Virus record (IMG/VR): IMGVR_UViG_2531839474_000011
Length of the DNA: 8,076 bases
From: a virus
Taxonomy: Duplodnaviria; Heunggongvirae; Uroviricota; Caudoviricetes
Strand: one strand, 5' to 3'
A program made the translations under genes and the position numbers. Shown one piece after another: positions 2,893 through 6,675 of this stretch. Each line of letters begins with the position of its first letter. Positions within the stretch are counted from its first letter, which is position 1. The notes beneath the pieces are model-generated. The model did no database searches, was not told the DNA's origin, and saw only the letters and a program-made list of their open reading frames with translations.

Positions 2893-2942
2893 AATAAGTG
2901 ATAGTCTTAATACTAGTTTTTAGACTAGTCATTGGAGAACAG

Positions 2943-3308
2943 ATGATTGATGTCTTAGGGCCGGAGAAACGCAGACGGCGTACCACACAGGAAAAGATCG
3001 CAATTGTTCAGCAGAGCTTTGAACCGGGGATGACGGTCTCCCTCGTTGCCCGGCAACATGGTGTAGCAGCCAGCCAGTTATTTCTCTGGCGTAAGCAATA
3101 CCAGGAAGGAAGTCTTACTGCTGTCGCCGCCGGAGAACAGGTTGTTCCTGCCTCTGAACTTGCTGCCGCCATGAAGCAGATTAAAGAACTCCAGCGCCTG
3201 CTCGGCAAGAAAACGATGGAAAATGAACTCCTCAAAGAAGCCGTTGAATATGGACGGGCAAAAAAGTGGATAGCGCACGCGCCCTTATTGCCCGGGGATG
3301 GGGAGTAA
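2943..3308 (+). CDS. insC: IS2 InsC (OrfA; helix-turn-helix transposase subunit/regulator)
   Basis: 121 aa: [56 protein letters not shown]... Start ATG at 2943 is preferred over the upstream ATG at 2898 given in the ORF track. Confidence 0.9.
3260..3266 (+). other. programmed -1 ribosomal frameshift heptamer A-AAA-AAG (produces the InsCD fusion transposase)
   Basis: AAAAAAG in the insC zero frame (gcA AAA AAG tgg = A-K-K-W), at the start of the insC/insD overlap. Characteristic of IS2 and IS3-family elements. Confidence 0.75.
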
Positions 3309-4171
3309 GCTTAGTCAGCCGTTGTCTCCGGGTGTCGCGTGCGCAGTTGCACGTCATTCTCAGACGAACCGATGACTGGATGGATGGCCGCCGCAGTCGT
3401 CACACTGATGATACGGATGTGCTTCTCCGTATACACCATGTTATCGGAGAGCTGCCCACGTATGGTTATCGTCGGGTATGGGCGCTGCTTCGCAGACAGG
3501 CAGAACTTGATGGTATGCCTGCGATCAATGCCAAACGTGTTTACCGGATCATGCGCCAGAATGCGCTGTTGCTTGAGCGAAAACCTGCTGTACCGCCATC
3601 GAAACGGGCACATACAGGCAGAGTGGCCGTGAAAGAAAGCAATCAGCGATGGTGCTCTGACGGGTTCGAGTTCTGCTGTGATAACGGAGAGAGACTGCGT
3701 GTCACGTTCGCGCTGGACTGCTGTGATCGTGAGGCACTGCACTGGGCGGTCACTACCGGCGGCTTCAACAGTGAAACAGTACAGGACGTCATGCTGGGAG
3801 CGGTGGAACGCCGCTTCGGCAACGATCTTCCGTCGTCTCCAGTGGAGTGGCTGACGGATAATGGTTCATGCTACCGGGCTAATGAAACACGCCAGTTCGC
3901 CCGGATGTTGGGACTTGAACCGAAGAACACGGCGGTGCGGAGTCCGGAGAGTAACGGAATAGCAGAGAGCTTCGTGAAAACGATAAAGCGTGACTACATC
4001 AGTATCATGCCCAAACCAGACGGGTTAACGGCAGCAAAGAACCTTGCAGAGGCGTTCGAGCATTATAACGAATGGCATCCGCATAGTGCGCTGGGTTATC
4101 GCTCGCCACGGGAATATCTGCGGCAGCGGGCTTGTAATGGGTTAAGTGATAACAGATGTCTGGAAATATAG
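3266..4171 (+). CDS. insD: IS2 InsD (OrfB; DDE transposase catalytic domain, rve/integrase core)
   Basis: 301-aa ORF in the -1 frame relative to insC, starting [20 protein letters not shown]... and ending ...[31 protein letters not shown]. The in-frame start codon at 3266 is GTG. Confidence 0.9.
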
Positions 4172-4583: not shown

Positions 4584-4763
4584 TTAGCTTTTTTCGTTGC
4601 CTTCGCGTTCTTTATTAATTTTGACAAAATCGTTTTTACCACGCTCTCCAAATACGTCTTTAGAGTCGTTGTATCCGCAATCGCAGCACACATAATCATC
4701 AGACCATCCACGCATTGTTTTTTCTTTTGCAATATTTCCAGAACCGCATTTTGGACAAGACAT
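4584..4763 (-). CDS. small Cys4 zinc-ribbon protein (59 aa), function unknown
   Basis: MSCPKCGSGNIAKEKTMRGWSDDYVCCDCGYNDSKDVFGERGKNDFVKINKEREGNEKS with CxxC...CCxC. Strong GGAGG Shine-Dalgarno 7 nt upstream of ATG 4763; the longer 70-aa version starting at 4796 has none. AT-rich local composition. Confidence 0.55.
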   Translation of the reverse strand: MSCPKCGSGNIAKEKTMRGWSDDYVCCDCGYNDSKDVFGERGKNDFVKINKEREGNEKS

Positions 4764-4859
4764 ATCACTACCTCCAAAGCATGAGAGAGATGACAACGTA
4801 ACATTGATTGGAGATTAACAATAGATTGCTGATGTAAAAGATATGTATAAGCTTAGCTA

Positions 4860-5507
4860 TCAAAGAGGAGGTTCTGGTAGTTGCATCCAGTCGGTTACAT
4901 TGCGACTCTGTGTTTCGAAAAATTCATCACCATTGCGGACAATATCGAAAAACTCTCCGTCTCGATATTGCGCATAAAGAACGAATGCGCCATCACATAA
5001 AATAATTACGTGCTGACCATCATCTGGCATTAGCTCACTACAGCTTATCCAACCATCCGGAGTTACCGGAGAGTTGCCGGGTTCTTTAATGTGCAAACGA
5101 GGCTCACCATCTTTTGGTTCAGGCCACTGACGCTCCATGTTGATCTTCAATTTATTTTCCATAGCAGCGGTAATTTCAGCATCACTGATACCGGCACGGC
5201 GCTGTGCATCCCACAACAGGAACTGCATATCAGCCCACTCGCTGAGATCGTCAGGTTCGGCTGCGGCTTCCAGAGCCTCTTTTGAGAGGTGTTTCAGTGG
5301 ACCAATGGGGCCAACGCAGCCAAATGTGGAGTCAGACCATTTGGCATGCTCGTGGCGAACCCGCTCGCGTTCCAGTGAGGCGAGAGCGATTTTAAATGCT
5401 GTAAGCATGTGTGCTTGATCGTTATCGAGTCCGAATGGCATTTCATCTCGTGCTGACTCAATACTGGTAATCGTATTTTGTAGCCATTCCATGGTAAAAG
5501 TGCTCAT
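4860..5507 (-). CDS. 215-aa phage accessory protein; two-domain architecture resembling the DUF550/DUF551 class found near Ea22-like genes (unverified)
   Basis: ATG overlaps the upstream stop in an ATGA junction (5504-5507). Acidic N-terminal region; C-terminal region GWISCSELMPDDGQHVIILCDGAFVLYAQYRDGEFFDIVRNGDEFFETQSRNVTDWMQLPEPP. The domain assignment is from memory only. Confidence 0.65.
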   Translation of the reverse strand: MSTFTMEWLQNTITSIESARDEMPFGLDNDQAHMLTAFKIALASLERERVRHEHAKWSDSTFGCVGPIGPLKHLSKEALEAAAEPDDLSEWADMQFLLWDAQRRAGISDAEITAAMENKLKINMERQWPEPKDGEPRLHIKEPGNSPVTPDGWISCSELMPDDGQHVIILCDGAFVLYAQYRDGEFFDIVRNGDEFFETQSRNVTDWMQLPEPPL

Positions 5508-5875
5508 CGTAAAATATCCTCTATACTGGTAAGCCCTTCATTATTTAGCCAGATCATTGCGTCATCCGGCAACTTGCTGTCTGGTTTTGCGTTTTTGAGA
5601 GAGGAACTCAGTCGCTTAATCCACATTGTCAGCTCAGTAATGCGCCTGTGTTTGCCTTCCAGCTCAACGCGCAGCCTCCCTACCGTTAGTGCAATATCCT
5701 CGTTCTCCTTGTCGCGGCGTTTGATGTATTGCTGGTTTCTTTCCCGTTCATCCAGCAGTGCCAGCACAATCGATGGTGTTACCAGCTCATGGAAAAGGTC
5801 CGCGTCAAATCCCCAGTTGTCATGCATTGCCTGCTCTGCCGCTTCACGCAGTGCCTGAGAGTTAATTTCGCTCAC
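5504..5875 (-). CDS. Ea22-like protein, short variant (123 aa)
   Basis: N-terminus MSEINSQALREAAEQAMHDNWGFDADLFHELVTPSIVLALLDERERNQQYIKRRD resembles the lambda Ea22 N-terminus from memory. The rest is predicted coiled coil and the protein is shorter than lambda Ea22 (182 aa). GTG start with GAGAGG Shine-Dalgarno; GTGA overlap with the upstream stop. Confidence 0.7.
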   Translation of the reverse strand: MSEINSQALREAAEQAMHDNWGFDADLFHELVTPSIVLALLDERERNQQYIKRRDKENEDIALTVGRLRVELEGKHRRITELTMWIKRLSSSLKNAKPDSKLPDDAMIWLNNEGLTSIEDILR

Positions 5876-6093
5876 TTCGAACCTCTCTGTTTACTGATAA
5901 GCTCCAGAACTTCCTGGCAACTTGCACAAGTCCGACAACCCTGAACGGCCAGGCGTCTTCGCTCATCTATGGGATCGCCACACTCACAACAATGAGTGGC
6001 AGATATAGCCTGGTGGTCCAGGCGGCGCATTTTTATTGCTGTGTTGCGCTGTAATTCTTCAATTTCTGATGCTGAATCAATGATGTCTGCCAT
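5872..6093 (-). CDS. DksA/TraR-family C4 zinc-finger protein (73 aa), TraR-like RNA polymerase secondary-channel regulator
   Basis: MADIIDSASEIEELQRNTAIKMRRLDHQAISATHCCECGDPIDERRRLAVQGCRTCASCQEVLELISKQRGSK. CxxC-x14-CxxC spacing and 73-aa length, as in F-plasmid TraR and the lambda TraR homolog. Confidence 0.8.
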   Translation of the reverse strand: MADIIDSASEIEELQRNTAIKMRRLDHQAISATHCCECGDPIDERRRLAVQGCRTCASCQEVLELISKQRGSK

Positions 6094-6142
6094 CTTTCAT
6101 TAATCCCTGAATTGTTGGTTAATACGCTTGAGGGTGAATGCG

Positions 6143-6169
6143 AATAATAAAAAAGGAGCCTGTAGCTCC
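6143..6169 (-). terminator. putative intrinsic terminator (GGAGC-TACAG-GCTCC + TTTTTTATTATT)
   Basis: 5-bp GC-rich stem with a long T-run on the minus strand, in the 98-nt gap between the 93-aa ORF and the TraR-like gene. Confidence 0.35.
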
Positions 6170-6191
6170 ATGATGATTTTGTTTTTCATGC

Positions 6192-6473
6192 TCACCGTTC
6201 CTTAAAGACGCCGTTTAACATGCCGATCGCCAGGCTTAAATGAGTCGGTGTGAATCCCATCAGCGTTACCGTTTCGCGGTGCTTCTTCAGTACGCTACGG
6301 CAAATGTCATCGACGTTTTTATCCGGAAACTGCTGTCTGGCTTTTTTGATTTCAGAATTAGCCTGACGGGCAATGCTGCGAAGGGCGTTTTCCTGCTGAG
6401 GTGTCACTGAACAAGCCCCATGTCGGCAAGCATAAGCACACAGAATATGAAGCCCGCTGCCAGAAAAATGCAT
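6192..6473 (-). CDS. hypothetical protein (93 aa), start uncertain
   Basis: ORF MHFSGSGLHILCAYACRHGACSVTPQQENALRSIARQANSEIKKARQQFPDKNVDDICRSVLKKHRETVTLMGFTPTHLSLAIGMLNGVFKER. No clear Shine-Dalgarno at the ATG, which lies 10 nt after the orf63 stop, so coupling is possible. An alternative GTG start at V23 has a GGGG motif upstream. Confidence 0.45.
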   Translation of the reverse strand: MHFSGSGLHILCAYACRHGACSVTPQQENALRSIARQANSEIKKARQQFPDKNVDDICRSVLKKHRETVTLMGFTPTHLSLAIGMLNGVFKER

Positions 6474-6483
6474 TCAGTGGTTG

Positions 6484-6675
6484 TCATACCTGGTCTCTCT
6501 CATCTGCTTCTGCTTTCGCCACCATCATTTCCAGTTTTTGTGAAAGGGATGTGGCTAACGTATGAAATTCTTCGTCTGTTTCTACTGGTATTGGCACAAA
6601 CCTGATTCCAATTTGAGCAAGGCTATGTGCCATCTCGATACTCGTTCTTAACTCAACAGGAGATGCTTTGTGCAT
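6484..6675 (-). CDS. orf63: lambda Orf63-like protein (63 aa)
   Basis: [69 protein letters not shown] Shine-Dalgarno. Size, 28-nt overlap with the upstream gene and position relative to exo match lambda orf63. Confidence 0.7.
   Translation of the reverse strand: MHKASPVELRTSIEMAHSLAQIGIRFVPIPVETDEEFHTLATSLSQKLEMMVAKAEADERDQV

Follow-up and report, generated by a model that had tools for sequence, protein, structure and literature searches.

A TGA-ATG junction under orf61 of a lambda-like prophage is probably a wrong-frame view of normal, overlapping genes

Introduction

The question raised by this locus is how a stop codon that directly abuts an in-frame start codon should be understood, and whether the frame in which the two were noticed is the one that matters. 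The locus lies in a stretch of 8,076 nucleotides (nt) from a virus of the Caudoviricetes (IMG/VR record IMGVR_UViG_2531839474_000011), here called the window, which belongs to a lambda-like prophage; the feature is on its minus strand, just downstream of orf63, where phage lambda has its annotated gene orf61. A first-pass annotation of the sequence had described a 9-codon open reading frame (ORF) that begins inside the 3' end of orf63 and stops at a TGA immediately followed by the ATG of a 93-amino-acid (aa) ORF, and had offered three readings of it: a nonsense-interrupted gene of 103 codons, a short coupling ORF, or a mosaic junction where this genome departs from lambda orf61. Coordinates below are window positions and refer to the minus strand unless stated otherwise.

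The answer favored here, with a probability of roughly 85%, is that positions 6404-6503 are coding in a frame that had not been read, and that the 9-codon ORF, the TGA and the 93-aa ORF together are a wrong-frame view of normal genes. In minus-strand order these are orf63 (ending at 6484), a 27-codon ORF designated ORF27 (6487-6404), and a gene specifying a 71-aa protein (6407-6192). The features of the region are collected in Table 1.

Table 1. Coordinates of the features discussed, in window positions except for the lambda gene.
Feature	Coordinates	Strand	Description
orf63 (DUF1382, 63 aa)	6484..6675	-	Pfam PF07131, E=3e-31; annotated in lambda and RefSeq; stop TGA 6486-6484 overlaps the ORF27 ATG
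ATGA stop/start overlap, orf63/ORF27	6484..6487	-	(G/C)ATGACA in 198/198 loci
ORF27	6404..6487	-	ATG, 26 codons and TGA, encoding MTTTECIFLAAGFIFCVLMLADMGLVQ; predicted small hydrophobic single-helix peptide
GTGA stop/start overlap, ORF27/71-aa gene	6404..6407	-	Start codon ATG in 184 and GTG in 14 of 198 loci; overlap kept in all
71-aa gene	6192..6407	-	GTG start, TGA stop 6194-6192; real conserved core of 'orf61'; three-helix protein (AlphaFold2 model)
Candidate N-termini in this region			MTPQQENALR (71-aa product); alternative MHFSGSGLHILCAYACR
A6 run inside the 71-aa gene	6342..6347	-	A6 in 174 and A7 in 18 of 198 loci; lambda has A7
Next small ORF	6100..6195	-	31 codons from GTG 6195 (GTGA overlap with the stop of the 71-aa gene) or 29 codons from ATG 6189
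Reported 9-codon ORF and TGA (MRETRYDNH*)	6474..6503	-	orf63 tail and ORF27 codons 1-5 read out of frame; not a gene
Polymorphic T/G/A	6476..6476	-	Synonymous third base of ORF27 Thr4 (ACT/ACG/ACA); in the orf61 frame, the base that opens the 'TGA'
93-aa ORF	6192-6473	-	From the list of ORFs
N-terminal 22 codons of the 93-aa ORF (MHFSGSGLHILCAYACRHGACS)	6408..6473	-	Out-of-frame reading of ORF27; most likely not part of the protein
Annotated orf61 of lambda	lambda (NC_001416) 30839-31024 (1698-1883 of L001)		Starts at the ATG homologous to 6503

Results

The reported junction read in the ORF27 frame

Direct reading of the strand confirmed that the series ATG(6503-6501) AGA GAG ACC AGG TAT GAC AAC CAC TGA(6476-6474) ATG(6473-6471) CAT occupies a single frame, as had been noted. 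The first ATG falls within the 3' end of orf63, where it spans the codons GAT and GAG, and the abutting TGA and ATG are ACT-GAA-TGC, that is, Thr4-Glu5-Cys6 of ORF27, read out of frame. Their adjacency is without significance of its own. The Cys/His-rich string 'HILCAYACRHGAC' at the start of the 93-aa product, which had been remarked on as unusual, likewise consists of hydrophobic ORF27 codons read out of frame.

Variation was scored in 198 loci, collected by means of a 26-nt DNA anchor that lies inside orf63 and outside the tested region. They comprise 27 haplotypes over positions 6530-6401 and 79 haplotypes over 345 nt, and they replaced an earlier sample, chosen by identity to the 71-aa protein of the window, that under-represented the TGA allele (2/92). 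Position 6476 is T (TGA) in 78 of the loci, G (GGA) in 79 and A (AGA) in 41; the TGA allele is found on 54 of the 79 distinct long haplotypes, and the upstream ATG at 6503 is replaced by ACG in 41 loci. When positions 6503, 6476 and 6407 are taken together, the configurations are ATG/GGA/ATG (76 loci), ATG/TGA/ATG (65), ACG/AGA/ATG (41) and ATG/TGA/GTG (13, the type to which the window belongs), the remainder being rarer types. The orf61 frame is conserved in none of its versions, and in the window, as in all 78 loci with the TGA, the frame that opens at ATG 6503 is closed before the conserved core is reached. The proposal of a 9-codon coupling ORF falls with these counts, as its start and its stop both vary among loci. 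What had been reported is itself ordinary, a silent polymorphism that was viewed out of frame.

Evidence for constraint on ORF27

The substitution pattern points to ORF27 as the frame under selection. Against a neutral expectation of about 25% synonymous changes, the ORF27 frame shows 13 synonymous and 10 nonsynonymous changes (P=0.0015), while the same bases read in the frame of orf61 and the 93-aa ORF give 5 and 17 (P=0.72), a neutral-like ratio. By codon position the 23 ORF27 changes divide into 14 at position 3, 5 at position 1 and 4 at position 2 (P=0.006), and among alleles carried by at least two distinct long haplotypes, 10 of 12 are at position 3. The ORF27 peptide is identical in 177 loci, compared with 19 different peptides for the orf61-frame reading, the commonest of which is present in 67. 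The 71-aa gene, used as a positive control, gave 18 synonymous and 19 nonsynonymous changes (P=0.0016), or 15 and 5 when only common alleles were counted. Third positions of ORF27 are at least as variable as those of the 71-aa gene and, since they vary freely, no second constraint from an overlapping frame is seen.

The start signals and gene borders are consistent with this assignment. Among the starts at 6503, 6487, 6473 and 6407, only those of ORF27 (-5.6 kcal/mol, 6 nt) and GTG 6407 (-4.7 kcal/mol, 7 nt) have a Shine-Dalgarno (SD) pairing at functional spacing. The best pairing for ATG 6503 is 14 nt away, and upstream of ATG 6473 the best anti-SD pairing is -3.8 kcal/mol at 13 nt, which agrees with the earlier statement that the 93-aa ORF has no functional SD. 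The 4-nt overlaps at both ends of ORF27, which read GTATGA (orf63/ORF27) and CAGTGA (ORF27/71-aa gene) in the window, are preserved in every locus of the sample, as is ORF27 itself. Just ahead of the first of them, the last 14 codons of orf63 (6487-6528) are unusually variable, with 6 nonsynonymous changes and 1 synonymous, which suggests that the C-terminal tail of the orf63 product is unconstrained.

Mosaic phages place their junctions exactly at these gene borders. In PhiR30_1, an N6-adenine methyltransferase gene stands in place of orf63, and homology to the window begins precisely at the ORF27 ATG, which is overlapped by the methyltransferase stop (GCATGA) and preceded by GGGAGG 4 nt upstream. 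In another mosaic phage (L106), a 250-aa gene stands in for orf63 together with ORF27, and this phage's copy of the 71-aa gene opens at the homologous ATG, behind a GAGG of its own. The most diverged copy of ORF27, in ev203, has two amino-acid changes and three silent ones, and the ORF is open. The predicted peptide has a grand average of hydropathy of 1.62, and its best 15-residue segment (CIFLAAGFIFCVLML, hydropathy 2.87) is a hydrophobic segment long enough for one helix, within an ORF under coding constraint.

ORF27 gave no significant match to Pfam, PHROGs, NCBIfam or PADLOC, and no ORF27-like ORF follows the diverged DUF1382 genes of phiV10, Sergei and a P1-like record. It appears to be a young, lineage-restricted ORF. 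It is unannotated in the RefSeq and lambda reference annotations examined and in the papers on the exo-xis region that were searched, and a text search of the literature for the peptide string found nothing; a few GenBank genomes call it a 27-aa hypothetical protein.

The 71-aa gene

GTG 6407 is codon 23 of the 93-aa ORF, and the product that begins there is MTPQQENALRS...FKER. An exhaustive phmmer search with the 71-aa core recovered about 20 diverged homologs (32-65% identity), 19 of them 68-78 aa long and the other 89 aa. The alignments cover the full length, query residues 1-71 to protein residues 1-71; the first residue of 18 of the 20 falls in the column of GTG 6407, and the N-terminal extension HFSGSG... 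was found in none of these homologs. The family pattern is M-x5-NALRxIAR...GxLNG. At distant loci, the 71-aa gene overlaps unrelated upstream genes by 4 nt, and in one of them (L234) a TraR-like gene comes next, as in the window; a prophage remnant (L107) and a locus with an IS66 insertion (L108) were uninformative on the start. In a genome 100% identical to the window, RefSeq annotates precisely this gene, GTG start included (71 aa, WP_000188870.1), and has nothing in the ORF27 interval. The 22 N-terminal codons of the 93-aa ORF are, then, most likely not part of the protein, and the doubt that the first-pass annotation cast on its start was well placed. The homologs are shorter proteins from genes of normal structure, which start with GTG here and with ATG in most loci, an outcome which that annotation had itself named as speaking against its readings.

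Structure prediction gave a similar picture. AlphaFold2 (AF2) applied to the 93-aa ORF returned predicted local distance difference test (pLDDT) values of 44-54 for residues 1-20 and of about 90 for the core, with helices at residues 25-48, 54-71 and 76-86. The low confidence at residues 1-20 agrees with the modelling of Donaldson 2021 (PMC8614690), in which residues 1-23 were excluded as inconsistent and lambda Orf61 was called truncated.

Many 71-aa and 93-aa copies carry the name 'cell division protein ZapA' at NCBI. The protein gave no match in NCBIfam or PADLOC, and its sole Pfam match was a weak local one to ZapA (PF05164) over residues 24-57, at 16.2 bits against a gathering cut-off of 23.8 bits. 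A Foldseek search of the AF2 model against the PDB produced no match with E<1 (best E=1.7), so that neither 'ZapA' nor 'homeodomain' is supported, and the ZapA name looks like an over-annotation. As a separate observation, eight long proteins (P0100, P0111, P0115, P0117, P0122 and P0126-P0128; 299-1578 aa) each contain 3-9 separate stretches that resemble the 71-aa core (26-39% identity), and it looks as if a helical unit related to this core has been tandemly repeated in large proteins.

Comparison with lambda orf61 and Phi24B Orf61

Lambda orf61 (lambdap37, NP_040613) and the Orf61 of phage Phi24B (vb_24B_7c) occupy the same locus as the reported feature and are collinear with it, with about 98% DNA identity. 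Alignment with lambda, which the first-pass annotation had rightly singled out as the key test, showed that the TGA is one base from the GGA of lambda, which has G rather than T at 6476. Lambda also has A rather than G at 6416 and 6407, giving its 71-aa gene an ATG start, and an extra A in the run 6347-6342 which truncates the 71-aa frame after 29 codons. All three point differences within ORF27 leave its peptide unchanged, and each is nonsynonymous when read as orf61. Since the window and lambda are collinear and differ only by point changes and a 1-base indel, the suggestion of a mosaic junction can be set aside.

It follows from the same alignment that the orf61 frame is open in lambda because that phage has G at the silent site 6476, and that the extra A makes the 61-codon 'orf61' end early. 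Lambda 'orf61' is composed of 32 out-of-frame codons, 22 true codons and a frameshifted tail of 7 codons, and by this comparison of frames it reads as an annotation chimera, not a real protein-coding unit. Lambda does have an intact ORF27 (complement 30925-31008). What is conserved in Phi24B Orf61 (residues 23-93) and in lambda orf61 (residues 33-54) is the 71-aa core of the window gene. The 71-aa gene is intact in Phi24B, and the 93-aa model lengthens it by 22 residues that are free of constraint; the window has both the TGA and a GTG start, and so only the 71-aa reading works in all the genomes.

The lambda delta-orf61 allele can be re-examined in this light. Its recombineering arms (PMC4699033) break off within ORF27 codon 13 and pick up again at codon 15 in the 71-aa frame, and as the 71-aa gene of lambda is already frameshifted, the deletion would mainly truncate ORF27, removing its C-terminal half (codons 13-27), as far as can be told from the primer sequences. 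This could help to explain why effects were weaker in lambda than in Phi24B, in which the 71-aa gene is intact.

As to the A7 form of the run, 15 of the 18 loci that have it are of the lambda haplotype and three are on other haplotypes; the latter could reflect recurrent slippage or sequencing error. Lambda-type A7 copies were also seen on low-coverage contigs (L088-L101) of unrelated assemblies, among them Shewanella, Bradyrhizobium, Kitasatospora, Paenibacillus, Oceanobacillus and Pseudomonas, and these copies are almost certainly contamination by lambda control DNA.

Discussion

Weighing the alternatives

Several other explanations of the locus have to be considered. One is that the true product comes from the 93-aa ORF at ATG 6473 (the Phi24B-type 'Orf61'), ORF27 being open by chance. 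This is improbable, although it has points in its favor: the 93-aa ORF is open and its ATG is conserved in all loci, and the model is widespread (phrog_303, more than 1000 contigs, NC_004914 and the exo-xis literature). Conservation of that ATG would be enforced by Glu5-Cys6 of ORF27 in any case, however, and substitution in the 22 N-terminal codons of the 93-aa ORF proceeds at a neutral rate, with nearly all common variants altering the amino acid. The lack of an SD, the low N-terminal pLDDT, the absence of the extension from every diverged homolog, the starts at the 71-aa position in L106 and the distant loci, and the coding-type constraint on ORF27 all argue in the same direction. An ancestral gene of about 103 codons running from ATG 6503, of which the window copy would be a pseudogene inactivated by the TGA and rescued from an internal start, is highly improbable. 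A frame with ATG, GGA and then open sequence does exist in 76 of the 198 loci, ORFs of this length are called in some genomes (P0001), and lambda orf61 uses this very ATG; against this stand the 78 loci and 54 of 79 haplotypes with the TGA, the 41 loci with ACG, and the lack of selection on the frame (5 synonymous, 17 nonsynonymous; P=0.72). Such an extension would moreover overlap orf63 by 20 nt without an SD, and it is present in no homolog. Programmed recoding, in which the TGA is read through or decoded as selenocysteine to give a fused product, has the in-frame TGA-ATG arrangement alone to recommend it and deserves almost no credence: the codon is TGA, GGA or AGA in 78, 79 and 41 loci, the upstream ATG is often absent, and an Rfam scan of the window gave no match. 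Stop-codon recoding is effectively refuted by the polymorphism.

A further explanation accepts the ORF27 frame and gives it a lesser role, that of a coupling relay whose openness and overlaps matter while its peptide is functionless. This is unlikely, though it would account for the 4-nt overlaps at both ends in all loci, for the narrow distribution and lack of distant homologs, and for the direct coupling of distant 71-aa relatives to other upstream genes without ORF27. A pure relay would tolerate amino-acid changes, whereas the peptide is the same in 177 of the 198 loci and recurrent alleles are concentrated at third positions (10/12), and in PhiR30_1 ORF27 travels intact with a different upstream gene. 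A number of observations weigh against the preferred reading, in which ORF27 is a normal gene of this segment. Its translation is deduced from sequence, and lambda ribosome profiling, as given in PMC8614690, added only a 7-aa and a 31-aa peptide in this block. No ORF27 homologs below about 91% DNA identity were found among phages and plasmids by tblastn and sensitive blastn. The SD sequences of ORF27 and of the GTG are weak, and the selection test draws on 23 changes within the lineage, of which recombination or sequencing noise may account for some. The 93-aa ORF stays open, and a longer isoform may occasionally be translated from it. Taken as a whole, the first-pass annotation was right about the doubtful start, the value of the lambda comparison and the single-base difference, but it missed the ORF27 frame, and none of its three readings of the junction stands.

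A coupled early-operon segment

With ORF27 read as a gene, the region would form a compact, translationally coupled segment of the early operon, in the order orf63 -ATGA- ORF27 -(A/G)TGA- 71-aa gene -(A/G)TGA- 29/31-codon ORF. Ribosomes ending at the orf63 UGA might re-initiate at the overlapping AUG of ORF27, and those ending at the ORF27 UGA at the start codon of the 71-aa gene that overlaps it, GUG here and AUG in most loci. ORF27 may therein play two parts, relaying translation and encoding a 27-residue hydrophobic peptide, probably inserted in the membrane, the sequence of which appears to be under selection. For the ORF that follows (M[SM]KNKIIMELQAPFLLFAFTLKRINQQFRD), the SD of ATG 6189 is -8.0 kcal/mol, and the 29-aa version is a coding sequence in some phage records; a terminator-like hairpin at 6155-6169 (GGAGCTACAGGCTCC, then a T-run) lies inside it. 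This ORF probably corresponds to the 31-aa peptide of lambda ribosome profiling, as given by PMC8614690.

Certain known systems offer parallels. Coupling by overlapping stop and start codons (ATGA or GTGA) is common in operons of bacteria and phages, examples being the trp genes and the early genes of lambda. The segment described here resembles them in its 4-base overlaps at orf63/ORF27, ORF27/71-aa gene and 71-aa gene/next ORF, in its weak SDs, and in the conservation of the arrangement in every locus examined; it differs in that a very short ORF lies between two coupled genes, and the coupling is here a prediction from sequence. Small hydrophobic single-helix proteins are also familiar from bacteria and phages, such as KdpF and AcrZ, or the type I toxin peptides TisB and ShoB. 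ORF27 is like these in its length of 27 aa, its one hydrophobic stretch and its position in an early operon, but it gave no significant match to any family in Pfam, PHROGs, NCBIfam or PADLOC, and its membrane insertion is a prediction.

Significance

The 71-aa gene model is already known from RefSeq. A by-product of the analysis is a conserved 27-codon ORF of lambda and Shiga toxin (Stx) phages that the RefSeq and lambda reference annotations examined had overlooked. Of 5426 complete E. coli genomes, 3326 carry this block, Stx prophages among them. Its reported influence on Stx prophage induction and on the choice between lysis and lysogeny can be interpreted only with correct gene models. If the preferred reading holds, the models and deletions made from the 61-aa or 93-aa sequences in structural and genetic work were aimed at the wrong unit. 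A more tentative idea, which we regard as possible and somewhat doubtful, is that lambda and Stx phages have in ORF27 a genuine, early-expressed small membrane protein, hidden for decades beneath the mis-drawn orf61, and that at least part of the pro-lytic phenotypes ascribed to lambda 'orf61' are ORF27 phenotypes or polar effects.

Surroundings of the locus

The minus-strand genes of the window, read from right to left, are bet, exo, orf60a (DUF1317), orf63, the region discussed above, a TraR-like orf73 (5872-6093), an Ea22-like gene, and others. An IS3-family insertion sequence lies within the prophage on the plus strand at 2898-4171, between xis and the remaining early-left genes, and carries an ORF for a 136-aa HTH_Tnp_1 protein and an overlapping one for a 301-aa protein with an rve integrase core. 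Where lambda has different b-region genes, the window has a 70-aa zinc-ribbon ORF (4584-4796, minus strand), with sub-threshold matches to Lar restriction alleviation and HVO_2753 zinc-finger families, and a gene for a 215-aa dATP/dGTP pyrophosphohydrolase and DUF551 protein (4860-5507, minus strand). Finally, a 427-aa lipoprotein-like ORF (1-1284) adjoins the lambda-type integrase gene (1419-2489); it looks like ybhC, which presumably lies here as it does beside the lambda attachment site.

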